Origin: Erysipelotrichaceae bacterium
GTDB lineage: Bacteria > Bacillota_I > Bacilli_A > Erysipelotrichales > Coprobacillaceae
Assembly (NCBI GenBank): GCA_028698185.1
Contig: JAQVDW010000004.1
Span: forward strand, 30,001-62,000
Direction of reading: 5' to 3'
DNA: 32,000 nt
Under the pieces are notes generated by a model. That model saw only the letters and a program-made list of their open reading frames with translations. It ran no database searches and was not told where the DNA came from. The position numbers and the translations under genes are program-made. Each line of letters starts with the position of its first letter. The stretch's first letter is position 1. Of this stretch, positions 5,233 through 30,353 are shown piece after piece.

Positions 5233-6528
5233 ATGTTAGATAGATATTCACGTGAAGTGATGCGCAATATTTGGAGTGAACAAAGCAAGTTTGATGCCTG
5301 GTTGAAGGTTGAAATCCTGGCGTGTGAAGCTTGGTCTTCTTTAGGGGAAATCCCTGAAGAAGATGTCAAGGCTTTATGGGCCAACGCTTCTTTCGATATT
5401 GACCGCATTTATGAGATTGAACAGGAAACCCGTCATGATGTCGTGGCTTTCACCCGTGCCGTATCGGAAACTTGCGGACCGGAAAAGAAATGGGTCCACT
5501 ATGGTCTGACTTCGACTGACGTTGTCGACACTGCCTATGGTTACCTTTACAAACAGGCAAACGTGATCCTGCGCGAAGACCTGAAGACATTCATGGAAAC
5601 GCTGCGCACCCAAGCTCTTAAATACAAGGATACCGTGTGTATGGGCCGGACCCATGGAGTTCATGCCGAAATCACAACTTTCGGTTTGAAATTCGCTCTA
5701 TGGTACGAAGAAATGAAACGGAATATGGATCGTTTCGAAGCTGCCTGTGCGGCTGTTGAAGCGGGGAAAATTTCCGGAGCTGTCGGTACTTTCGCCAACA
5801 CGCCTCCTCAAGTCCAAGACTATGTCTGCGACAAACTGGGAATCAACTCATCAGCGATTTCGACTCAGACTTTGCAACGTGACCGTCATGCCCAATACTT
5901 CTCGACATTGGCTCTGATCGGTTCGTCACTTGAAAAAATGGCTACGGAAATCCGTCACTTGCAAAGAACCGAAGTCCGTGAAGTTGAGGAATATTTCCGA
6001 AAAGGACAAAAAGGTTCTTCAGCGATGCCTCACAAACGCAATCCGATCTCTTCGGAAAACATCTGCGGATGTGCCCGGGTGTTGCGTGGTTACATGCTTA
6101 CATCATATGATAACATCCCTTTATGGCATGAACGCGACATTTCCCACTCTTCAGCGGAACGTCTGATCGCCCCTGATGCGACAGCCTTGCTTGATTACAT
6201 GCTTGTCCGTTTCAACGGAATCCTCGCCAACCTGACGGTTTTCGAAGACAACATGCTTGAAAACATCAACAAGACATATGGTGTTATCTTCTCGCAACGT
6301 TTCATGTTGAAACTGATCGAAAAAGGATGGACCCGTGAGCAGGCTTATGACACGGTTCAGCCAAACGCGATCAAATCATGGGAAAACAAGATTTCATTCA
6401 AGTCATTGATGGAAGACACCCAAAAAGTTCGTGAAACCTTGACCCAGGAAGAAATCGATGATTGCTTCAATCCTGCATACCAGGTCAAAAACGTCGACGT
6501 CATCTTCAAAAGAGTCGGTTTGTTATAA
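5233..6528 (+). CDS. purB: adenylosuccinate lyase
   Basis: 431 aa with the fumarate-lyase family signature [11 protein letters not shown]. An AGGAG RBS is present and the gene follows purL. Confidence 0.95.
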
Positions 6529-6533
6529 TAATG

Positions 6534-6564
6534 AACTCTGTCTGTTTATCAGGCGGAGTTTTTT
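6534..6564 (+). repeat. direct repeat, left copy (DR-L)
   Basis: aactctgtctgtttatcaggcggagtttttt matches 9415-9445 at 25 of 31 positions, including 9 of 13 loop bases. Confidence 0.8.
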
Positions 6565-6566
6565 CT
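6534..6566 (+). terminator. intrinsic terminator of purB (also the left copy of the islet-flanking direct repeat)
   Basis: Stem aactctg (6534-6540) pairs with cggagtt (6554-6560), including one G-U pair. The loop is 13 nt and a T-run follows. Confidence 0.7.
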
Positions 6567-6600
6567 TTCTCTCCATATTTTTGAAAGTTACTTCCTGTGA

Positions 6601-6660
6601 ACTTGAAATAAGGAATTTGATTTCGTTTCCATATTTCAAGTTGAGGGATAAAAACGAAAT
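6601..6660 (+). other. two interleaved perfect stems (pseudoknot-like or mutually exclusive hairpins)
   Basis: acttgaaata (6601-6610) pairs with tatttcaagt (6632-6641). atttcgttt (6620-6628) pairs with aaacgaaat (6652-6660). The 5' arm of the second stem lies in the loop of the first. Confidence 0.5.
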
Positions 6661-6856
6661 AATCTTAGTTCATTTGGACTTTCTAACCATATAACAGATT
6701 TGGTATTCTAACTGGGCATTCAATACTAAACGCTTTTGTTTTAATTATTCGCCTTTTTTAAATCATCTTGAGTGATTGAGGTATTATCATATACTTTTAT
6801 TTTTGGTTTCTAAGGTCCAGTGTAGGAATAAAATTGCGGATTCATCTTGGTCCACT

Positions 6857-7114
6857 TCACCTAGTCCTGAACTTTCTTGCAAAATGCAGTTGTGATAATG
6901 TCAACAAATGTTGACCTCCAACTGTAATCTCATTCTTACTCGCAATTGATCGCAAAATCAACTCAGAAAGAGACCATGACAGCATTTTTTTATGAAGCTG
7001 ATGCCTAAAATTTTGATCAGTGTCAGAAGCTAGGATTGGCAGGTCTGGTGAGAATAATTTACGTAATTGTACTCTCAACTGGTCAGGATTCCAGGTTCGA
7101 AAAATTGCGGCTAA
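6857..7114 (-). pseudogene. possible gene remnant (about 85 open codons, no recognisable family)
   Basis: The frame is open from the TGA at 7115-7117 down to the stop at 6857-6859. The only start is a TTG with no RBS. Short open stretches in other frames adjoin it across an A8 tract (7117-7124). Confidence 0.25.
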
Positions 7115-7481
7115 TCAAAAAAAACAGCAAGGGCATCATGGACAACAACATCAAAAGGAATTATATTTTTGGAATTTACTATCTATTGAGTACTGATAGT
7201 ACAAATACCTATAACGACTTGATAGAATGCATCAACTTACGGAATTAAAAGGTTGATAAAAAGATAAAGCGTCATTGATTATAGTGGATATATATCATAA
7301 GCGGCTACGGCCAAAATAATATACTATTATAAATTGGCGCGAAGTCCATATTAATGATATCTAGCGTTTTGGATTTATCTGAACCTTGTTTTTAAGGTGT
7401 CTTAAGCATGTCGTCATTCAAATTTTTATTTGAAATTATTTTTTAAATGGAACAAAAGTATCAATAATGATAAATTACTCA

Positions 7482-7509
7482 TTGACTTTCAAAAAGATTA
7501 CTTTATAAT
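7482..7509 (+). promoter_or_regulatory. sigma-A type promoter of the islet operon
   Basis: TTGACT (7482-7487), a 16-nt spacer, then TATAAT (7504-7509). Confidence 0.6.
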
Positions 7510-7548
7510 ATGAAGTGGATAGTCACTTCATATTATAAAGTGACTATC
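7504..7548 (+). promoter_or_regulatory. two overlapping perfect palindromes across the -10 box and transcript start (candidate operator and/or 5' stem-loop)
   Basis: tataatatgaagtg (7504-7517) pairs with cacttcatattata (7524-7537). gatagtcactt (7518-7528) pairs with aagtgactatc (7538-7548). The two pairings share bases. Confidence 0.55.
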
Positions 7549-7590
7549 AGGGTTGCTACTAGTAGTGAAATATTTTGTGGAGGAGATATT

Positions 7591-8268
7591 ATGAATGAAG
7601 ATATTCAAAGTGCCATGAATCAAATAAAATTGATCAATAATTCTATTGAAAAAGCAAAGAACAAGGGCAATATTATAGGGAAAATGTTTATATATTTTGG
7701 AATAATAAATTTGGTTAATTATATATTATCTATAATATCAAGTCTTTTTATTTCAAGTTTCAGCGAATTTATTTTAATTGGCGTAATCATTAATGCGATC
7801 ATGTTAGCTACACTGTATTTAGAGGTCCGCAAAATTTTGAAGACATCAAGATATTCTACAAATATATATTTTTTAGGCTTTCTTAGATTATTTGTCTTTA
7901 TTACATTTTTACTACCGTTGATACTGCTTGCGGCCAGGTTTTTCTTATTTTATTTTACAGATATTGATCCATCGTTGTTCATCGCACAATCTACAAAGAT
8001 AAGAGTATTATCTAACTTGGTATTGTTCTTTTATGCATTGATTAATTTTACAAATCTTTCGAGTCTTAAAAGAAACATTTCTTTAATTGCATTAGCAATA
8101 TTTATGATTTTCGTTTTATATGTGATGGATATTGGTTTGAATTTTAGCTTGAATAATTACGTTGTGTCATATTATTTGTGGTCTATTGTGCTAAATCTAA
8201 TGTTTTCAATTGGTTATGTTATCATAGGAATACGTATAAGACAAAAAGAACTTCAAAATGGAAATTGA
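7591..8268 (+). CDS. polytopic membrane protein, function unknown (about 6 hydrophobic segments after a polar N-terminal helix)
   Basis: ATG at 7591 lies 5 nt after GGAGGAG (7579-7585). The 225-aa product is rich in I/L/F stretches. The ORF-track start at 7510 falls inside the promoter and is rejected. Confidence 0.75.
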   Translation: MNEDIQSAMNQIKLINNSIEKAKNKGNIIGKMFIYFGIINLVNYILSIISSLFISSFSEFILIGVIINAIMLATLYLEVRKILKTSRYSTNIYFLGFLRLFVFITFLLPLILLAARFFLFYFTDIDPSLFIAQSTKIRVLSNLVLFFYALINFTNLSSLKRNISLIALAIFMIFVLYVMDIGLNFSLNNYVVSYYLWSIVLNLMFSIGYVIIGIRIRQKELQNGN

Positions 8269-8554
8269 AGATATACCTCAAGCGCTTACCCTTCCATTAA
8301 GACTAATAATTATTAGTATTTTAATTGGCGCGGCTAAAAATTTTAATGATTTGAAAATTTTATCCAACAGTTCAGACGGCAACTTAAGTGTACAGTTAAA
8401 GAAGTTGGAAACCTGGGGATATGTTTCATCAAGCAAAATAAAACAACAAAATAGAACAGTCACCTATTACAATTTGACAAAATATGGGCAAGAGCAATTT
8501 GAAAATTACGTCAAATTACTTTCACGGATAATAGGTAATGTTGATGATTTTTAA
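8258..8554 (+). CDS. winged-helix transcriptional regulator (HTH_34 / ArsR-PadR-like)
   Basis: 98 aa with LRLIIISIL..FNDLK...SDGNLSVQLKKLETWGYVSS...RTVTYYNLTKYGQEQFENYV, a typical wHTH pattern. It overlaps the upstream membrane gene by 11 nt. Confidence 0.8.
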   Translation: MEIEDIPQALTLPLRLIIISILIGAAKNFNDLKILSNSSDGNLSVQLKKLETWGYVSSSKIKQQNRTVTYYNLTKYGQEQFENYVKLLSRIIGNVDDF

Positions 8555-8688
8555 ATTAATTTACAACAAAACTTTTAAGCAACAAATAGCAATCCAAAAC
8601 AATAAATACTGTACTTTGCAGGAATTATAAGGTTTTGATTTAATTTCTATTTTGTCAAATACTAGGGCATCAGAACACAAAACTTCAT

Positions 8689-9312
8689 ATGAAAGAAGAG
8701 GGGATTATTCTGAAGAAATTATTTAGTATTTTACTCATTGTAACAATAATGTTGAGTTTTAATATGAATGTTTATGCACAGGACAAGATATTGCGAGTTG
8801 ACAATTATGAAGATGCGTTTAATTTAATTATTGAAGAATTCGACGTAGATATGACATATTTACCGGTTGACGAATCGAGAATTTCGCTTAATGATTATAT
8901 CAAAATTACCAGAGAGGTTGCTGAAGAACAAAGAGAATTGTTGGACTACATCGAATTTAGACAATCAAATAATTTTGAATTATTTTCACCGCTGACAATG
9001 AGTATAGATTCAGTAACCGTTACAAAAACAAGAACGAAAGATGCTTGGGGAGATATGGGTACATACTTTGGTATTAAAGCCACATATAATGTAACAGGGA
9101 CGCAAGTAAGTTACTTGAGAAATTCTAGTATATCTTATAAATATGCTACAGTAACTTCAAATGTTTCATTGGGTAATATCAGTAACCCAACGTATTCATA
9201 TCTTGACGGTGGTCGTACTGGGGCTGTTAAATACACTGCTGAAATGTACTATGACTTTTTTTGGAGTGCTGGAAACGTCACCATATATACAGAATTTTAT
9301 TATAGTGAATAA
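8689..9312 (+). CDS. secreted protein, function unknown (Sec signal peptide; helical N-domain and beta-rich Tyr/Thr/Ser-rich C-domain)
   Basis: MKEEGIILKKLFSILLIVTIMLSFNMNVYA/QD has n-, h- and c-regions with a VYA-Q cleavage site. The RBS before the ATG at 8689 is weak, so the start is uncertain. The DR-R hairpin terminates it. Confidence 0.7.
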   Translation: MKEEGIILKKLFSILLIVTIMLSFNMNVYAQDKILRVDNYEDAFNLIIEEFDVDMTYLPVDESRISLNDYIKITREVAEEQRELLDYIEFRQSNNFELFSPLTMSIDSVTVTKTRTKDAWGDMGTYFGIKATYNVTGTQVSYLRNSSISYKYATVTSNVSLGNISNPTYSYLDGGRTGAVKYTAEMYYDFFWSAGNVTIYTEFYYSE

Positions 9313-9317
9313 ATGTA

Positions 9318-9386
9318 GGTGGCTCTGAAGAGTGAAAATGGGTGGCTCTATATCGGTGAACAAGGTGGCTCTCAACTAGCGGAATA
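9318..9386 (+). repeat. three tandem 23-bp units, each starting with GGTGGCTCT
   Basis: GGTGGCTCT occurs at 9318, 9341 and 9364, exactly 23 bp apart. Units 1 and 2 also share GTGAA near their 3' ends. Confidence 0.85.
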
Positions 9387-9414
9387 TTCAATTGTTGTTG
9401 GAATTGTAAATATC

Positions 9415-9445
9415 TACTCCGCATGTTTATCATACGGAGTTTTTT
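9415..9445 (+). repeat. direct repeat, right copy (DR-R)
   Basis: tactccgcatgtttatcatacggagtttttt matches 6534-6564 at 25 of 31 positions. Confidence 0.8.
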
Positions 9446-9447
9446 TT
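9416..9447 (+). terminator. intrinsic terminator of the islet's last gene (part of DR-R)
   Basis: actccg (9416-9421) pairs with cggagt (9435-9440). The loop is 13 nt and T7 follows. Confidence 0.7.
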
Positions 9448-9454
9448 GTATAAT
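9447..9454 (+). promoter_or_regulatory. extended -10 element (TGTATAAT) for the SDR gene
   Basis: TG plus TATAAT (9449-9454) sits 22 nt upstream of the ATG at 9476, with AGGAGG at 9461-9466. The -35 is weak. Confidence 0.45.
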
Positions 9455-9475
9455 GTACCAAGGAGGTAAATTAAT

Positions 9476-10183
9476 ATGGATTTTACCAATAAAGTAGTAG
9501 TCATCACCGGGGGCGCCCGAGGCATCGGCCGAGCCATGGCTGAGGCATTCGAACAGGCCGGAGCCCAAGTCGCCATCATCGATATCATCGAAAATGATTA
9601 TTTTGTCGGGGATATCGCCAACCCGGAAATTCTCGAATCGTTCCATGGAAAAGTGATAAAAGATTTTGGCCATATCGATTTTCTGATCAACAACGCGATG
9701 CCCTTGTTCAAGGGCATCGACAACTGCTCCTATGAACAGTTCAATTACGCCCTGCAGGTGGGGGTTAGCGCGCCGTTTTATCTGACCAAGCTTTTTCTTG
9801 ACAATTTCACAACCACCGGGGCGATCGTGAACATCTCCTCATCCCGCGATCGGATGAGCCAGCCCCAAAGTGAAAGCTACACCAGTGCCAAAGGGGCGAT
9901 AAGTGCCTTGACCAGGTCGTTGGCGATCAGTCTTGGGGGTAGAGTCCGGGTCAATTCCGTTTCGCCGGGCTGGATTGACACCAAAAACCAGGACCATCAA
10001 GGGCCCGATGCCTCCCAACATCCTGTTAGACGAGTAGGCAAGCCGGAGGATATCGTCAATGCGGTCATGTTCCTGTGCGATGAAAAGGCCGGGTTCATCA
10101 CCGGAGAAGACATCTGTGTCGATGGGGGGATGACCAAACTGATGATCTACCATGATGATTTTGGTTGGACTTACAATGAATAG
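9476..10183 (+). CDS. SDR family NAD(P)-dependent oxidoreductase
   Basis: TGGARGIG Rossmann motif, NNAM, a catalytic Ser and YTSAK (YxxxK). Confidence 0.9.
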   Translation: MDFTNKVVVITGGARGIGRAMAEAFEQAGAQVAIIDIIENDYFVGDIANPEILESFHGKVIKDFGHIDFLINNAMPLFKGIDNCSYEQFNYALQVGVSAPFYLTKLFLDNFTTTGAIVNISSSRDRMSQPQSESYTSAKGAISALTRSLAISLGGRVRVNSVSPGWIDTKNQDHQGPDASQHPVRRVGKPEDIVNAVMFLCDEKAGFITGEDICVDGGMTKLMIYHDDFGWTYNE

Positions 10184-10212
10184 ACACAATTTCGATGAAG
10201 TGAGGTGGATGG

Positions 10213-11097
10213 ATGTTTCTATTGCAGAAAATTGAGGAACTGATGGTGAATTACAGCGATGCCCGGCATACCGTCGGAGAATTCGTCCTGAACGAGAAGG
10301 CGGCGATTGGCGACTATACGATCGCCCAGATCGCCCAGAAAACCTACACTTCCAAGGCGACAGTGGTAAGGTTTGCCAAGACATTGGGATATGAGGGTTG
10401 GAAAGAATTCAAAAAGGATTACCTGGCTGAACTCAACTACCGGGCAAGTCACAGCGATGATGTCGACGTCAATATTCCCTTTAAAAAGGGCGACAGCATG
10501 GATGTTCTGGTCAACAACCTGATGAATCTCCTGATAGAGAGCGTCAGGGATACCGTTGATCTTTTGGACTATGCGATGGTGGAAAAGGCGGTTGAATATC
10601 TTAAAAATGCCCGACATGTGATCATCTTCGGCATCAGTCCCAACGATTATCTTGGTCAACTTTTCAAAAGAAAGCTGCTCACGATTGGAAAGTACGCTGA
10701 TGTGGTCCAGTTTTCGGAAATCGGCCTGATGTCGAAATTCATGACCAAGCAAGACTGTGCGATTGTGATATCATATTCGGGCAACACCCGGTTCTCCGAA
10801 CCGATAAGCAGCCTCAAAACGCTGATTGGCAAAAAAATTCCGATAATCGGAATCACCAGTGGCGGCGACAATTTTATCAGAAACAATGTAACCTGCGTCC
10901 TGACCATTTCTTCAAGAGAGAGACTGTACTCGAAGATATCGAATTTTGCGACGGAGAACTCGATCAACTTTATCCTGAATTTGATATTCTCGCGCTATTT
11001 CATGGACGATTATGAGCGGAACCTGATCTACAAGATTGAAAACGCCAAGGATCTTGAAGTCCAAAGAGCTGCCACATTGAAAGAACTTAAAGACTAG
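10213..11097 (+). CDS. MurR/RpiR family transcriptional regulator (HTH_6 + SIS domain)
   Basis: N-terminal ...IAQIAQKTYTSKATVVRFAKTLGYEGWKEFK and a SIS-like VIIFGISPN...VISYSGNT. The RBS is GAGGTGG. Confidence 0.9.
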   Translation: MFLLQKIEELMVNYSDARHTVGEFVLNEKAAIGDYTIAQIAQKTYTSKATVVRFAKTLGYEGWKEFKKDYLAELNYRASHSDDVDVNIPFKKGDSMDVLVNNLMNLLIESVRDTVDLLDYAMVEKAVEYLKNARHVIIFGISPNDYLGQLFKRKLLTIGKYADVVQFSEIGLMSKFMTKQDCAIVISYSGNTRFSEPISSLKTLIGKKIPIIGITSGGDNFIRNNVTCVLTISSRERLYSKISNFATENSINFILNLIFSRYFMDDYERNLIYKIENAKDLEVQRAATLKELKD

Positions 11098-11122
11098 AAC
11101 GACTGCAAAGCGGTCGTTTTTT
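11098..11122 (+). terminator. intrinsic terminator after the RpiR gene
   Basis: aacgac (11098-11103) pairs with gtcgtt (11113-11118), followed by a T-run. Confidence 0.65.
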
Positions 11123-11207
11123 GCAGGGCAAAAGTTTCGCATAGTTTCACCATTTTGAAATTTTGAAGGCGATTCCATGAAACTCCGTTCCATATCCGTC
11201 CGATTTG

Positions 11208-11236
11208 TTGAAAGCAAAAAATATCAATGATAGTAT
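11208..11236 (+). promoter_or_regulatory. promoter of the PTS/glucosidase operon
   Basis: TTGAAA (11208-11213), a 17-nt spacer, then TAGTAT (11231-11236). A small inverted repeat gatag-tat-ctatc overlaps the -10. Confidence 0.5.
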
Positions 11237-11244
11237 CTATCCAT

Positions 11245-11325
11245 GGATGTGAGACACATCCGATTTAGGCGATCGAATCTGGAATCCGGAATTGCATGCA
11301 ACCAGTTGGGATCGCTTCTAAATCC
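11245..11325 (+). promoter_or_regulatory. structured 5' leader of the PTS gene (class not recognised)
   Basis: Hairpin ggatgtg/cacatcc (11245-11261). A long-range helix gatttag..cgatc / gatcg..ctaaatc (11262-11324) encloses the palindrome ttgcatgcaa. Its 3' arm abuts the RBS at 11326-11331. Confidence 0.4.
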
Positions 11326-11339
11326 AGGAGGAGAAACTG

Positions 11340-13112
11340 ATGAGTAAAAAATATGAAAGCTTGGCCCACGATATTGTCGAAAATATCGGTGGCAAAGAAA
11401 ATGTATTGAATGTATATCATTGCATGACCCGTTTGCGTTTCACTTTAGCAGACAATGCCAAAGCAAACAAAGAAGCAATTGAAGAAATCGAAGGTGTCAC
11501 TAAAGTTATCATCAACGCAGGTGTCTATCAGGTTGTAATCGGGCCCCATGTCAGTGATGTGTTTGAAGAAGTAATCAAACTGGTGGATATCAATCCAAAT
11601 AAGGAAGATGTTCCGGCTGCTAAAAACGGGATCTTGAATACTATATTTGATTTCATCTCCGGAACTTTCCAACCGGTCATTCCAGCCTTGTCTGGAGCGG
11701 GAATGGTCAAAGCGGTTCTGGCAATCCTGGTTGTCTTAAAACTGATAACCAATGAGTCGCAAACTTATTACTTGCTCAATATGTTTGCCGATGGGGTATT
11801 CTATTTCCTGCCGCTGATATTGGCGTACACGGCAGCCCAGAAATTGAAAGCGAACCCGATCCTGGCGGTCAGCGTGGCGGCGATGATGCTTCATCCCAAT
11901 TGGTTCGCCTTGGTTACAGCGGGTGAGCCGGTAAGCTTCTTTGGAGTTGTTCCTTTCACTTTGGCCCGCTACTCGTCTTCGGTAATCCCGATCATCCTGG
12001 TGGTGCTGGTTCAGGCAAAAGTGGAGAAACTGCTCCGCAAATATGTGCCAAAATCAATTGAACTGGTTATTGTGCCCTTGTTGACTTTCCTGATCATGGG
12101 AACCTTGGCATTTTCAATCCTGGGACCGATCGGAACCATCCTTGGTGGTTACCTGGCGACATTCTTCACTTTCTTGAGTGTCAAAGCGGCCTGGGCACCG
12201 GCAGTGCTGATCGGAGCTTTTTGTCCGTTGATGGTCATGATCGGTTTGCACAATGCGGTAGCGCCATTGGGGGTCGTCCAAATGTCAAATCTTGGATTCG
12301 ACAGTATCTGGGGACCGGGAAATATCTGTTCTAATATGGCCCAGGCGGCAGCCGTTACTGTAGTCGCGCTAAGAACGAAAAACAAACAGACAAAACAGAT
12401 TGCAGCAAGCGCTAGTGTCACTGCCTTTATGGGGATCACGGAGCCGGCACTGTACGGGGTCAATCTTGTTAAAAAATATCCTTTGGTCGCATCAATGATT
12501 GGTGGGGGGCTAGGCGGGCTTTATGCCGGGTTGACCCATACCCATCGTTTCGCTACCGGATCAGGCGGTCTTCCAGCAGTTGCCTTGTACATCGGTGACA
12601 ACACGATGAGATTTTTCTACAATATTATCATTGCCATGGTCATCTCGGCGATTGTATCGGCGGCGTTGACCTTTGTATTGAGTCTCAAATATGAAAATAA
12701 TGAGGGAGGAGTCCAGGCTCCGACGGAAAAAGAAAAGACCGGATTTGCCGGAGCGATTGTCGAATCGCCACTCAAAGGCGAAGTGCTGCCACTTGAGCAA
12801 TGCAATGACCAGGCTTTCGCAAGCGGAAGCATCGGCAAAGGGGTTGCGATCAATCCGACCGAGGGCAAGGTTGTCGCGCCATTTGATGGTACTGTTGTAA
12901 CACTGTTTCCGACCAAACATGCAATCGGCCTTGTTTCAAAAGACGGGCTGGAATTGCTGATCCATGTCGGTATCGATACTGTCAATCTCAATGGCAAATA
13001 TTTTGAAGCGCTGGTCAAACAAGGCGACCAGGTCAAAGCCGGGCAGGATTTGATCGAGTTCGATATCGAGGGGATTGAAAAATCCGGATATTCCCCCAGA
13101 CAATTGTCGTAG
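11340..13112 (+). CDS. PTS beta-glucoside-family transporter, fused EIIB-EIIC-EIIA (reading frame breaks near the 3' end)
   Basis: EIIB motif HCMTRLRF, a polytopic EIIC, and EIIA-Glc motifs TKHAIG and LIHVGIDTV. The annotated frame ends prematurely at ...GYSPRQLS*. Confidence 0.9.
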   Translation: MSKKYESLAHDIVENIGGKENVLNVYHCMTRLRFTLADNAKANKEAIEEIEGVTKVIINAGVYQVVIGPHVSDVFEEVIKLVDINPNKEDVPAAKNGILNTIFDFISGTFQPVIPALSGAGMVKAVLAILVVLKLITNESQTYYLLNMFADGVFYFLPLILAYTAAQKLKANPILAVSVAAMMLHPNWFALVTAGEPVSFFGVVPFTLARYSSSVIPIILVVLVQAKVEKLLRKYVPKSIELVIVPLLTFLIMGTLAFSILGPIGTILGGYLATFFTFLSVKAAWAPAVLIGAFCPLMVMIGLHNAVAPLGVVQMSNLGFDSIWGPGNICSNMAQAAAVTVVALRTKNKQTKQIAASASVTAFMGITEPALYGVNLVKKYPLVASMIGGGLGGLYAGLTHTHRFATGSGGLPAVALYIGDNTMRFFYNIIIAMVISAIVSAALTFVLSLKYENNEGGVQAPTEKEKTGFAGAIVESPLKGEVLPLEQCNDQAFASGSIGKGVAINPTEGKVVAPFDGTVVTLFPTKHAIGLVSKDGLELLIHVGIDTVNLNGKYFEALVKQGDQVKAGQDLIEFDIEGIEKSGYSPRQLS

Positions 13113-13201
13113 TGACAAATCACAGCCAATATGGCAATATCGCCAGCACAAATGAAATGAGAGTCGGTTTTTCTGACAGCCTGCTGGCAATAGAAGGATA
13201 G
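13097..13201 (+). other. out-of-frame continuation of the EIIA domain (34 codons plus stop)
   Basis: After the C5 run (13093-13097) the next frame reads QTIVVVTNHSQYGNIASTNEMRVGFSDSLLAIEG*. This is the expected EIIA C-terminus. It stops at 13199-13201, 9 nt before the next gene. Confidence 0.75.
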
Positions 13202-13207
13202 GGGTAA

Positions 13208-14635
<1,428 letters not shown>

Positions 14636-14881: not shown

Positions 14882-15184
14882 ATGGATCTAATCAATCATA
14901 AAACCTTTCGCGAATTTATAATATTGTCGTGTTTGCAGCACAATCCCGAAGGCTTGAACATTCATCAGCTGCTATCGGCCCTGAATGAGTTCTTTAGCGT
15001 TGACGAAGTCGAGCTGTTTCTCGCATTGTCAAAACTGCTTAAGGAAAACCGGATCCAGGGCCAGAACAACGCTGAGAAGATGCAGGTTTTCTATATCCTG
15101 ACCAAGGATGGAAAGCAGGCATGTCAGTCATACAGGCTGATGTGGGATGGCCTGCAGGACAAGCTAGACAAACTGGTAAAATGA
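14882..15184 (+). CDS. PadR-like small winged-helix transcriptional regulator
   Basis: 100 aa. The RBS is AGGAGG. The ...FIILSCLQHNPEGLNIHQL...YILTKDGKQ pattern fits, as does its position ahead of DUF1700 and DUF4097 genes. Confidence 0.7.
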   Translation: MDLINHKTFREFIILSCLQHNPEGLNIHQLLSALNEFFSVDEVELFLALSKLLKENRIQGQNNAEKMQVFYILTKDGKQACQSYRLMWDGLQDKLDKLVK

Positions 15185-15194
15185 GGTGATGTAC

Positions 15195-15815
15195 ATGAAC
15201 AAATATGAATTTCTCGAAGCCCTGGAGCGCAATCTTCAGGATGTCGATTTCCAAATCCGGCATGATGCCTTGCGCTACTACCAGGATCTCATCGAAAACG
15301 GCGGGTATGACCAGGAAGCGACCATTAGAAATCTAGGCGCGCCTGAGGTTATCGCTTCAAGAATCAAAGCGGAACAAGTCAACAAAGCATTTGAAGAAGG
15401 ACAATTCGACAATGGGCCCGAAGTCAAGGTGCCAACCGGTCAGAAAGTAGATAAGAATTTGATCTTGATAATCGCTATCGTGATTGTCATCGCATCTTTT
15501 TCTTTAGGTGGGATTGGTGGGGCTTTTGGAATACTGATTGGCATGGGAGCGGGGATTTTTGGCTTATTGGCGGGCTTGCTGTCCTTTGGTATTATTTCAT
15601 TCGTTCACGGCGTTAATACGCTGCTGCTTATTGAAAACGGGTTCGACACCGGCAATGTCCTGATCCATGTCGGGATATTATTGGTCAATATCGCCCTGAC
15701 TTTCCTGTGGCTCGCCCTGTTTATCGCCATTGTCAAGGCGCTGCCTCTGATTGTCAAAGCAGTCATTGAGGCGGTTACGCGGTTTGTGGCCTGGCTGAGG
15801 AGGTTGCTGTCATGA
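15195..15815 (+). CDS. DUF1700 (HAAS) family membrane protein
   Basis: N-terminal MNKYEFLEALERNLQDV...RYYQDLIENGG is typical of DUF1700, and the C-terminal half is Gly-rich TM. The start could also be 15189. Confidence 0.8.
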   Translation: MNKYEFLEALERNLQDVDFQIRHDALRYYQDLIENGGYDQEATIRNLGAPEVIASRIKAEQVNKAFEEGQFDNGPEVKVPTGQKVDKNLILIIAIVIVIASFSLGGIGGAFGILIGMGAGIFGLLAGLLSFGIISFVHGVNTLLLIENGFDTGNVLIHVGILLVNIALTFLWLALFIAIVKALPLIVKAVIEAVTRFVAWLRRLLS

Positions 15816-16573
15816 AAAAATTATCTAACGCCCTGGTCTTTTTCTTCGTGGTCTGCCTGGTTGTTGGGGTAGCCATGATTTCGGTGGGATACGGGATAAC
15901 CGACCAGAAAAGCTTCAGACTGACTGATATCCTGGGATTTGGCGTAATCGAAGACAAGGATTACCAATCCCTGAACTTAAGCGATATCGAAAATGTCAAG
16001 ATCGAGGCCAATTCGAAAGTCATTTTCCGCCAAGGCGACACCCTCAAACTGATCTACACGACCCCTAGCGACAGTGTCAGTGTCAGCGGCGACAACCTTA
16101 CGGTCAAGGAAAAGAACACCAATACGATTGGGTTCTACTTTGGCAAGGTAAAGGTCGATACCATCATTATCGAATATCCCGCTGATTACGAGTTTTCCAA
16201 TGTCGATTTGAGCATCGATGTTTCAAGCATAATCATCGACGACCTCAATGCCCTTAATCTTTACATCGACAACGACGCGGGGAGCAACGAGGTCAACGGC
16301 GGCGCCATCGGCAATATCGATATCGACAGTGACGTCGGTTCGACCAAGATTGACGGGGTGGACTTTGGCTCTCTCAAGGGAAAGGTCGATGTCGGTTCAA
16401 TCACAATCAACCTGATTGACGATGTTTCACAATACTCGATGAAGCTTTCCGGCGATGTGGCAAGCATCAAAGTCGACGGCGAAGATGTCGGCGATTACAA
16501 TTCCGACGGCCTTAGCGACAAGACGATCGATCTTGCCAGCGATGTCGGTTCGATCAAGATCAACTCCCGCTGA
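15812..16573 (+). CDS. DUF4097 family beta-strand-repeat protein with N-terminal TM anchor
   Basis: ATGA overlap with the upstream gene. Repeated D-V-G-S-(I/T)-K-I-(D/N) strands occur in the C-terminal half. Confidence 0.8.
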   Translation: MKKLSNALVFFFVVCLVVGVAMISVGYGITDQKSFRLTDILGFGVIEDKDYQSLNLSDIENVKIEANSKVIFRQGDTLKLIYTTPSDSVSVSGDNLTVKEKNTNTIGFYFGKVKVDTIIIEYPADYEFSNVDLSIDVSSIIIDDLNALNLYIDNDAGSNEVNGGAIGNIDIDSDVGSTKIDGVDFGSLKGKVDVGSITINLIDDVSQYSMKLSGDVASIKVDGEDVGDYNSDGLSDKTIDLASDVGSIKINSR

Positions 16574-16575
16574 TC

Positions 16576-17121
16576 ATGGCTATCGAAGAGGTTGAAAGGC
16601 GGCTCAAACGCGACAACAAGATCCTCTTTGCCAGGGACAGTCCCTCTCTTGCCAGCCTTGTAGCGATTCTTGAGACAATGGACAAGAAGGCCGTTGTGCT
16701 TTGGGCGCTCGACCAGGCAACAGCGGTCGTGATGGAACTTGATGGCAAATACCCCGAAATCGGGCTGTTTGTCGAGTCCCTCAATCTCGCAAATCTCTGG
16801 TTCCAGGGCCAGGTAAAGATGGCCCCGGTCAAAAATGCGATCCTGCAATTGCATAAAATTGCCGGCGAGTTCGAAAAGGATGGCAGCACCAGGGCAGACG
16901 GCCTCAAAATCCGGGCGCTGGCCCATGGCCTGGCCACAATCCATTCCAAGAAACACGCCATCGGTTTGCCCATGTACTATCTAAGTGCCCTGGTATGTCG
17001 CGACAAAGACAATTACCAGGTGCTAGTAACCGACATGATCAAACAGTATCGTGCCGCCCTGGAATATTATGATTCACATCTAAGTGAATGCAATGTCCAC
17101 TGGGCCAAATTCATGCAATGA
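16576..17121 (+). CDS. all-alpha hypothetical protein, possibly Imm-5-like putative immunity family
   Basis: It starts 2 nt after the DUF4097 stop. The pattern ...VLWALDQATAVV...YPE....ANLWFQGQVKM..VKNAILQLHK....ALAHGLATIH...HAIGLPMYYL resembles that family. This is judged from memory only. Confidence 0.45.
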   Translation: MAIEEVERRLKRDNKILFARDSPSLASLVAILETMDKKAVVLWALDQATAVVMELDGKYPEIGLFVESLNLANLWFQGQVKMAPVKNAILQLHKIAGEFEKDGSTRADGLKIRALAHGLATIHSKKHAIGLPMYYLSALVCRDKDNYQVLVTDMIKQYRAALEYYDSHLSECNVHWAKFMQ

Positions 17122-24736: not shown

Positions 24737-24832
24737 CACAGAGTAGAGACAAGTACGTGAAGTGTTTGATGGACGGGGAGTTGTCATCAAAACGAAAGGT
24801 AAGCCTGCGATATTTGTCTTGCATCCCGCTGG
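24737..24832 (+). promoter_or_regulatory. THF (tetrahydrofolate) riboswitch aptamer
   Basis: Conserved blocks appear in the same order as the Eubacterium siraeum THF aptamer as I remember it: AGAGUAG, ACGUGAAGUG, GGGGAGUUGUC, AACGAAAG, GCG and UGCAUCCCGCUG. Helices agacaa/ttgtct and tttgatg/catcaaa covary. It lies upstream of folate genes. Confidence 0.8.
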
Positions 24833-24844
24833 AATCTGAAATTT

Positions 24845-29471: not shown

Positions 29472-30353
29472 ATGGAAACAATCAAAAACAAGACATTGAC
29501 CGGAGAACGGGCACTTTTTGCCAGCGACGGTCTTCATATCGAACAGTGCATCTTTGAAAACGGGGAATCACCCCTGAAGGAAAGCGGCAACCTTGACATC
29601 GCCCAAAGCATCTTCAAATGGAAATACCCACTGTGGTATTGCCATGATGTGACCGTGGCCAACTCGATGCTCACGGAAACAGCCCGTTCGGGCATCTGGT
29701 ATACCCATGGCATTGGGATTGTCAACAGCACAATCGAAGCACCCAAGACATTCCGGCGCTCTTCGAACATAACACTTGACAATGTCAGCCTGCCATTGGC
29801 CCAGGAAACACTGTGGAACTGCAACGTTATCACAATGAAAAATGTCACTGCCCGGGGCGACTATTTCGCGATGAACAGTACCGATATCACCGCCACCAAT
29901 CTCAACCTCACCGGCAACTACGGCTTCGATGGCTGTACGAATGTCACAATCGAAAATTCGACGTTGCTGTCGAAGGATGCCTTCTGGAACTGCGAGAACG
30001 TGACTGTGAAGAATTGTACGATCATCGGCGAGTACCTTGGTTGGAACTCGAAAAATGTGACTTTCATTGATTGCACCATTTCGAGTCTGCAGGGGCTGTG
30101 TTACATCGATAACCTGAAAATGGTCAACTGCAAGCTGCTTGACACGACCCTGGCTTTCGAATATTCGACAGTCGATGTCCAAGTTGATGGCGAAATCGCC
30201 AGTGTCATCAACCCGACAAGCGGAATCATCAAAGCAAAGGCCATCAACGAGCTGATCATGGATGGGACAAAAATAGATCCGGCCAAAACCCAGATAATCA
30301 TTGATGAATTTCATCAGTCTGATCCCAGGCAAGCAGGAATAGTCTGCAACTAA
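29472..30353 (+). CDS. DUF3737 family protein (predicted right-handed beta-helix)
   Basis: Periodic N-(V/I)-T / NxT coil repeats (NVTARGD, NLNLTGN, NVTIENS, NVTVKNC, NVTFIDC). The N-terminus LTGERALF...IFENGESPLKES is as I recall for DUF3737. Confidence 0.7.
   Translation: METIKNKTLTGERALFASDGLHIEQCIFENGESPLKESGNLDIAQSIFKWKYPLWYCHDVTVANSMLTETARSGIWYTHGIGIVNSTIEAPKTFRRSSNITLDNVSLPLAQETLWNCNVITMKNVTARGDYFAMNSTDITATNLNLTGNYGFDGCTNVTIENSTLLSKDAFWNCENVTVKNCTIIGEYLGWNSKNVTFIDCTISSLQGLCYIDNLKMVNCKLLDTTLAFEYSTVDVQVDGEIASVINPTSGIIKAKAINELIMDGTKIDPAKTQIIIDEFHQSDPRQAGIVCN

Follow-up and report, generated by a model that had tools for sequence, protein, structure and literature searches.

The DNA considered here is a 32-kb window (32,000 nucleotides; positions 30,001 to 62,000 of contig JAQVDW010000004.1, assembly GCA_028698185.1) from an uncultured Erysipelotrichaceae bacterium of the gut or digester. 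In this window the genes purD, purL and purB on the left, and a short-chain dehydrogenase/reductase (SDR) gene, rpiR, a phosphotransferase system (PTS) EII gene and a GH1 gene on the right, are separated by a 2.9-kb, A+T-rich, three-gene islet lying within the terminator hairpin 3′ of purB. The islet, from approximately 6565 to 9445, spans 2,881 bp, is of foreign origin and varies between strains; it is situated in a Rho-independent terminator hairpin between purB and the SDR gene. Its G+C content is 30.6% over 6565–9414 versus 49.5% for the remaining window, and 500-bp windows fall to 26–35% over ~6500–9500 versus 44–57% elsewhere. At third codon positions, G+C is 27% in the three islet genes and 50–72% in the neighboring genes, and the islet lies at a tetranucleotide L1 distance of 0.67 from the remaining window, compared to 0.187 ± 0.013 for other 2.9-kb tiles. 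The drop in G+C between purB and the SDR gene, first noticed in an earlier note made from the sequence of the window, is borne out. Comparison with related strains showed an insertion–deletion polymorphism exactly at the terminator hairpin, of which empty sites have one copy and occupied sites two. From left to right, the locus comprises the following features.

5233–6528, plus strand: purB, adenylosuccinate lyase, an open reading frame (ORF) with Pfam Lyase_1 and ADSL_C domains; its stop codon lies 5 bp ahead of the left hairpin
6534–6564, plus strand: purB terminator hairpin, putative left attachment site (attL); 11-bp stem, TTTAT loop, T6; similarity between the left and right copies begins at 6523
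6565–6661, plus strand: conserved left end of the putative element, 83% identical to that of L091, an occupant with a different cargo
6662–7481, no strand: A+T-rich stretch without an intact gene, holding an 85-aa minus-strand ORF at 6860–7114
7482–7548, plus strand: region of a predicted strong promoter, TTGACT-16-TATAAT (11/12), at 7482–7509
7591–8268, plus strand: polytopic membrane protein, 225 aa, 5–6 transmembrane segments, no known family
8258–8554, plus strand: winged-helix regulator, 98 aa, PF13601 HTH_34 (E = 1.4e-17), its start overlapping the end of the membrane-protein gene
8689–9312, plus strand: secreted protein, 207 aa, signal peptide ending VYA/QD, orphan family
9318–9372, plus strand: three GGTGGCTCT repeats with 23-bp spacing, in one islet variant only (window and L083)
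9402–9414, plus strand: conserved right end of the putative element, TTGTAAATATC, also present in L091 and, in looser form, in L110
9415–9445, plus strand: second hairpin copy, putative right attachment site (attR), with the element-type left arm TACTCCGCATG
9449–10183, plus strand: right flank, with a TATAAT −10 (9449–9454), a ribosome-binding site and the SDR gene (9476–10183)

The duplicated hairpin, empty sites and a second cargo

The top direct repeat of the window pairs 6523–6564 with 9404–9445, a 42-nt match of 76% identity whose copies are 2881 bp apart. Within it, the 31-mers at 6534–6564 and 9415–9445 match at 25 of 31 positions upon recounting, exactly as the earlier note reported, and the similarity continues 11 nt upstream of the hairpin. 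The core TGTTTATCANNCGGAGTTTTTT occurs in exactly two copies in the 32 kb, where 100 shuffles gave an expectation of 0. Both copies fold as a hairpin followed by a T-run (−16.5 kcal/mol on the left and −10.3 kcal/mol on the right), and the left one is predicted to be an intrinsic terminator. The stem is 11 bp long and closes on a loop of 5 nt (TTTAT), which corrects the 13-nt loop assigned previously. The bases formerly ascribed to that loop are indeed conserved, but the conserved TTATCA within the second hairpin doubles as the −35 of the predicted SDR promoter (TTATCA-16-TATAAT), providing a second possible cause for its retention. Similarly, insertion after a housekeeping gene holds true, although the site is the intergenic terminator and not the coding 3′ end of purB as initially proposed.

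Across the 116 loci compared, the hairpin was seen solely at the purB–SDR junction. A degenerate hairpin pattern returned 5 unrelated chance matches in a metagenome scan of a collection from which the organism's locus is absent, while viral-contig scans gave 0 matches for either the left-end or the element-type hairpin. With two copies in 32 kb, a single junction in 116 loci and no related metagenome or viral copies, the material covered gave no sign of a multicopy family of the repetitive extragenic palindromic type, an outcome that the earlier note had named as refuting its proposal, alongside a segment carried by all relatives. A tRNA or noncoding RNA as the insertion target was rejected, since a tRNA scan found no tRNA gene in the window and the islet had no Rfam match.

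Relatives were gathered via a ladder of purB homologues and their contigs were then compared. An exact-purB look-up yielded one 4-kb contig, ending at the purB stop codon; in a purB scan of GTDB genomes, Breznakia pachnodae (85% amino acid identity) had the closest named purB among the matches listed, without synteny. Two contigs, L099 and L100, are unoccupied: in each, purB is followed by one hairpin, TGTATAAT and the SDR gene, the intergenic region measures 63–65 bp, and the islet is missing. L099 is a 140-kb contig whose purL and purB are 99.6% and 98.6% identical to those of the window, and L100 is a 74-kb contig bearing a compensated variant of the L099 hairpin; the purL genes of the two are 99–100% identical to that of the window. 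They match the empty site predicted beforehand (purB, a single terminator, the promoter and the SDR gene), and they show that the segment is not carried by all relatives. The intergenic length of the occupied site exceeds that of the empty one by 2882 bp, in agreement with the repeat spacing of 2881 bp.

The junctions can be read directly against the L099 purB–SDR interval, TAAtattcAACTCTGTCTGTTTATCGGACGGAGTTTTTTTTGTATAATgtttacaggaggtaattattATG. The left arm of attL is identical to the left arm of this empty site, and at the left junction this chromosomal (attB-type) arm and its hairpin give way to element sequence, CTTTCTCTCC. At the right junction, the element sequence ending in TTGTAAATATC is followed by the distinct left arm TACTCCGCATG and then by the right side of attB, CGGAGTTTTTTTTGTATAAT; downstream of the element-type arm at attR, this right side reads TTTTTTTTGTATAAT. 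The blocks TGTTTATC and GGAGTTTTT are identical across all hairpin copies, and the chromosomal hairpin and the element's own putative site (attP) have in common the blocks TGTTTATC and CGGAGTTTTTT.

Public assemblies also break at or near the islet boundaries: contig L001 ends at window position 6530 and L084 starts at 9321. In the metagenome-assembled genome (MAG) GCA_028690185.1, the end of contig L096 and the start of contig L083 overlap by exactly 127 bp, corresponding to window positions 6438–6564, and this overlap stops with the final T of the T-run at attL. It is a branch in the assembly graph at the left boundary of the islet, with a second path leaving the T-run, and it hints at coexisting alternatives or strain heterogeneity in the sample.

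The same pair of ends also encloses a different interior. L091, a locus from a 2.88-Mb genome whose purB is 92.6% identical to that of the window at the nucleotide level, contains both hairpin copies, but its homology with the window ends at 6661 on the left and restarts at 9402 on the right. In between lie 434 unrelated bp of 31% G+C. The window and L091 thus agree at both extremities of the insert, over 97 bp on the left (83% identity) and over the ~12-bp TTGTAAATATC on the right. In L110, whose SDR allele is the nearest to that of the window (94% amino acid identity), the element-type hairpin is preceded by a longer form of the L091 cargo, comprising a fragment of an ORF of >175 aa and a conserved 49-aa ORF. 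The ORFs of this second cargo lie at 9650–9799 in L091 and at 579–698 and 2–529 in L110; the 49-aa product reads MCKIKNA..YGIEQI.YNAVSNRSPVF, while the >175-aa ORF has no known family and is a truncated remnant in L091. Different interiors joined to a common hairpin pair, left end and right end look like the attachment region of an element family. Because the window, L091 and L110 all carry the element-type arm, it is not simply bound to one SDR allele, and the notion that the right hairpin is a terminator allele riding with the window-type SDR gene is weakened, since L091 (SDR 86% identical to that of L099) and L110 have the arm as well. The three GGTGGCTCT repeats were considered as arm-type integrase sites and rejected as a conserved feature, being missing from the other islet variant and from L091.

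Strain mosaicism and the mode of entry

The exact islet regulator protein was found in 10 contigs from 9 samples, with the same site and arrangement wherever the contig was long enough to tell. Carriers are 99–100% identical across the islet, except for three divergent segments: a patch at 7133–7232, a ~55-bp replacement at 9333–9400 that places unrelated sequence where the window has its three GGTGGCTCT copies, and, inside purB, a 300-bp patch at 6133–6432 over which the window is 91–95% identical to L082 and L095, compared to 100% otherwise. The latter looks like a short recombination tract, and the last ~700 bp of purB are a recombination-prone patch. Relative to the empty-site strains, the left flank of the window is ~100% identical up to ~5.8 kb, whereas the right flank is 72–82% identical for 3–4 kb and then 90% (L099) or 100% (L100). 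The SDR alleles of the clade all differ mutually by 14–23%. In the same area, 9476–13200 (SDR, rpiR, PTS) is hypervariable, and L100 recovers gradually, reaching 100% from ~12.3 kb. Judged by these identities, the locus is a recombination mosaic, and homologous recombination clearly moves the region between strains; the islet and its SDR allele are probably passed on in this way, whatever placed the islet there first. Nowadays the islet appears to spread between strains mainly within larger homologous-recombination tracts.

No recombination enzyme accompanies the islet. Pfam and PHROGs searches of its three ORFs found no integrase, excisionase, transposase or relaxase, a six-frame search of stop-free fragments of at least 25 aa over 6529–7600 against the same databases found no integrase, transposase or relaxase, and no recombinase is present anywhere in the 32-kb window, whose remaining genes are housekeeping genes. 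These results uphold the absence of such enzymes that the earlier note had reported. A pseudogene hunt over the 950-bp noncoding part (6565–7510) uncovered no integrase and no relic of an integrative and conjugative element (ICE), only a weak TPR_10-like fragment. The longest fragment, the minus-strand 85-aa ORF at 6860–7114, had two matches in an exhaustive HMMER search, a TPR_10-repeat protein and a Big_13 protein; both are repeat-driven, with E-values inflated by multiple repeat matches. Residues 47–78 of this ORF resemble one TPR_10 repeat unit, and the ORF may derive from a decayed gene for a repeat protein. Neither the islet DNA nor the secreted protein had a BLAST match among plasmids and phages.

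The most likely route of entry would be conservative site-specific recombination in which the chromosomal hairpin served as attB and the element supplied an attP resembling a terminator, catalyzed by a recombinase that acted in trans or has since been lost. Reconstructed in this manner, attB would be AACTCTGTCTGTTTATCA..CGGAGTTTTTTTTGTATAAT and attP would contain TTGTAAATATCTACTCCGCATGTTTATCAGGCGGAGTTTTTTCTTTCTCTCC. Among possible catalysts, a tyrosine recombinase is the likeliest, because the two copies are 76% similar over 42 nt and their inverted arms surround a short spacer. As read from the sequence, attL keeps the purB terminator, while attR restores a terminator together with the predicted −35 of the SDR gene; neither neighboring gene should thus be harmed. 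Because the islet encodes no recombinase, so that the enzyme must act in trans or have been lost, it resembles a cis-mobilizable element (CIME). We consider it probable that the locus holds a CIME-like islet, integrated site-specifically into the terminator hairpin by such a recombinase, whose present spread is mainly due to exchange of homologous tracts. The CIME-like reading had been put forward in the earlier note, and it gains support from the att-like repeats, the make-up of the two junctions, the empty sites, the lack of a recombinase, the foreign composition, the alternative cargo, the constant site among carriers, the assembly-graph branch at the left boundary and the recurrence of the cargo in a Sedimentibacter region with a large serine recombinase; from these we infer the site-specific mechanism.

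Several observations weigh against this reading. Scans of metagenomes and viral contigs found no integrase, attP junction or circular form. Swapping the arms to rebuild attB and attP yields hairpins that fold no better (−10.7 and −12.6 kcal/mol) than attL (−16.5 kcal/mol), and for that reason the crossover cannot be placed in the loop or in the T-run. L099 and L100 differ from the window by 18–28% across SDR–rpiR–PTS despite ~100% purL identity, a divergence that would allow presence and absence of the islet to be swapped by homologous recombination alone; given their diverged SDR allele (77–81%), the empty-site strains are not isogenic "before" states. Finally, the outgroup contigs L092 and L093 (purB 82% identical at the nucleotide level) have a different purB terminator and a 400–500-bp spacer, so that the polarity of gain and loss rests on composition and not on phylogeny.

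These points lead to the principal rival, in which the junction is a replacement hot spot for homologous recombination: related terminators would stem from an old local duplication, one or two captures would have brought foreign cargo in between, purB and PTS/GH1 homology would let strains exchange cargo-bearing and cargo-free alleles, and sites with one hairpin would result from deletion between the repeats. The strongly mosaic flanks (~100% on the left against 72–82% on the right for 3–4 kb, with a graded recovery in L100) speak for it, as do the divergent patches inside purB between carriers, the failure to find a recombinase and a repeat identity of 76% that is similar to the 77–86% among SDR alleles. 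However, such a hot spot needs a mechanism that, on no fewer than two occasions, places DNA of 27–31% G+C exactly between hairpin copies. Moreover, different SDR alleles (window, L091 and L110) occur with the element-type arm and the 97-bp left end, which ties these two features to the insert and not to the allele of the flank. As a mechanism for the initial insertion would still be required, this explanation is rather unlikely. Very improbable is a hairpin-directed, single-strand route, akin to integron attC recombination or to HUH/IS200–IS605-like transposition, by which an unlinked enzyme would recognize the folded terminator. Target and repeat are imperfect palindromes, and different small cargos do occupy the same hairpin-bounded slot, but the window contains no IntI, TnpA or TnpB, the hairpin lacks a GTTRRRY core, the hairpins at the left and right ends of the insert are unrelated, and the cargo is served by a promoter of its own. 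A chance resemblance to the purB terminator, with the right hairpin being simply the terminator of the secreted-protein gene, is scarcely credible and disfavored. Although both copies are plausible intrinsic terminators, they have in common a 22-nt core with 20 specified bases, for which 0 copies are expected, their similarity reaches 11 nt upstream of the hairpin, and in L091 and L110 a hairpin of this element type borders unrelated cargo. These points favor the earlier claim that the two copies look homologous rather than convergent.

Other candidates were rejected. A transposon target-site duplication does not suit a repeat of 31–42 nt that is only 76% identical while the islet is 99–100% conserved among carriers, and a transposon would lack both terminal inverted repeats and a transposase here. 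No integrase gene lies next to an att end, as it would in an island encoding its own tyrosine integrase. An integron cassette is contradicted by the core TGTTTATC, which is unlike GTTRRRY, by the strong promoter of the cargo and by the lack of IntI in the window. The left end does carry an inverted repeat, AACTTGAAATA..TATTTCAAGTT, at 6600–6642, but this hairpin is unrelated to the right one, the target hairpin is duplicated and TnpA and TnpB are missing, which speaks against an IS200/IS605-type element or a palindrome-associated transposable element.

Conceivably, the site-specific reading could be extended. The purB terminator hairpin might be a docking site for recombinase-less cassettes that end in terminator-mimicking attachment hairpins and are swapped by an unlinked, possibly host-encoded recombinase. 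We regard this as decidedly unlikely; if true, it would amount to a single-site, integron-like platform in Erysipelotrichaceae that rebuilds the terminator and the −35 at each exchange.

The cargo module

The three islet genes, the first two as an operon, lie downstream of the predicted promoter, whose −10 region is covered by a perfect 18-bp inverted repeat at 7500–7541 and an overlapping 15-bp inverted repeat reaching 7548. These repeats (7500–7548) are the probable operator of the HTH_34 regulator. A related ACTTCATATGAAAG motif lies at the start codon of the secreted-protein gene (8677–8692). The secreted protein has 5 relatives only among 5.8 billion clustered proteins, at 37–43% identity, aside from the islet's own variant. 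It matched no PDB profile and no Pfam, PHROG, PADLOC or NCBIfam entry, and an AlphaFold2 model built from the five-sequence alignment was unusable (predicted local distance difference test of 45). The membrane protein likewise had no Pfam, PDB profile, PADLOC or NCBIfam match.

In a Sedimentibacter MAG (L102), a homologue of the secreted protein adjoins a divergently transcribed membrane-protein/HTH_34 pair. Its membrane protein (222 aa) is 22% identical to that of the islet over the full length (E = 2e-8) and its HTH_34 protein 49% identical; module identity between the two thus spans 22–49%, and the L102 module has 27% G+C. At 14620–18436 of L102, ~4–8 kb from the module, are genes for a Sigma70_r4-like protein, an HTH_16 protein, a PemK toxin and a 561-aa large serine recombinase, an ensemble that we take to resemble the regulatory and recombination end of Tn5397/Tn916-like conjugative transposons. 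From this arrangement the three genes would form a conserved accessory module spread by mobile DNA in Clostridia.

As to what the module does, a tentative guess is that the membrane protein and the regulator form an autoregulated sensor/regulator pair controlling the exported protein. The closest parallel is with dyads of HAAS and PadR-like winged-helix proteins, in which a small regulator is translationally coupled with an adjacent multi-pass membrane protein (PMC11237479). As in these dyads, a winged-helix regulator of the PadR/HTH_34 type stands next to, and is translationally coupled with, a membrane protein in the islet. Unlike in the dyads, the islet membrane protein has no HAAS or DUF1700 match and the gene order is reversed; the regulator itself is an HTH_34 protein whose PadR match falls below the cutoff. 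As the membrane protein lacks a HAAS match, the sensor/regulator reading is an analogy only. A bona fide PadR–HAAS–DUF4097 set lies elsewhere in the window, at 14882–16573, as part of a cluster at 14882–17121 with PadR-like, HAAS, DUF4097 and Imm5-like (putative immunity protein) genes. In L110 and in L092/L093, the SDR gene is directly followed by PadR–HAAS genes. The beta-glucoside-type cassette at 10213–14635 (rpiR, PTS-EIIBCA, GH1) is also an indel. Further away, a tetrahydrofolate riboswitch at 24737–24833 (77.6 bits, E = 2e-16) precedes an operon of an HD-domain gene, folP (Pterin_bind) and folB–folK.

Known counterparts and significance

Streptococcal CIMEs at the fda locus adjoin ICESt1 and ICESt3. 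Like CIMEs, the islet lies just 3′ of a housekeeping gene, between imperfect att repeats, with an empty site in sister strains; it is devoid of integration and transfer genes, and its cargo is of foreign composition. By definition, CIMEs keep attL and attR around an element that has no integration or transfer genes, derives from an ICE or an integrative and mobilizable element (IME), and is mobilized by a cognate integrase (PMC5704250). On the two features tested, flanking attL and attR and the lack of an integrase, relaxase or transposase, the islet agrees with this definition. It departs from CIMEs in that its site has no known related ICE, IME or cognate integrase, that it has no recognizable relics of an ICE backbone, that its att core is an intergenic terminator hairpin instead of a coding 3′ end, and that its size is only 2.9 kb.

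Two further systems offer partial parallels. The intY islands of Pseudomonas occupy the 3′ ends of tmRNA and tRNA genes, encode their own tyrosine integrase and AlpA, measure 20–55 kb and depend on a helper for transfer (PMC12595487). They resemble the islet in having a single conserved docking site, short direct repeats of which one is chromosomal and one element-borne, variable cargo at the same site across strains, and no transfer genes. The islet differs in lacking an integrase and AlpA and in targeting the terminator of a protein gene. Integrative mobile elements exploiting Xer (IMEX), for their part, integrate at dif via the host XerCD. Both they and the islet lack a recombinase of their own and lie between paired copies of an imperfect palindrome, but the islet site is the purB terminator and not dif, its arm–spacer architecture is 11-5-11, and the window shows no GC-skew switch.

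Cargo aside, the finding is ordinary accessory-genome variation of a kind already known, namely a small CIME-like islet. Its cargo is an uncharacterized accessory module in common with a Sedimentibacter mobile region. Its interest is that of a clean natural case: a very small, integrase-less islet with att-like repeats, exact empty sites and alternative cargos, in a poorly studied family, the uncultured Erysipelotrichaceae. If a trans-acting recombinase were identified, the short hairpin att sites could serve as a compact integration system. For the host, the attachment site would be a functional terminator that also provides the −35 of the next gene, such that an element can integrate there while harming neither neighbor.

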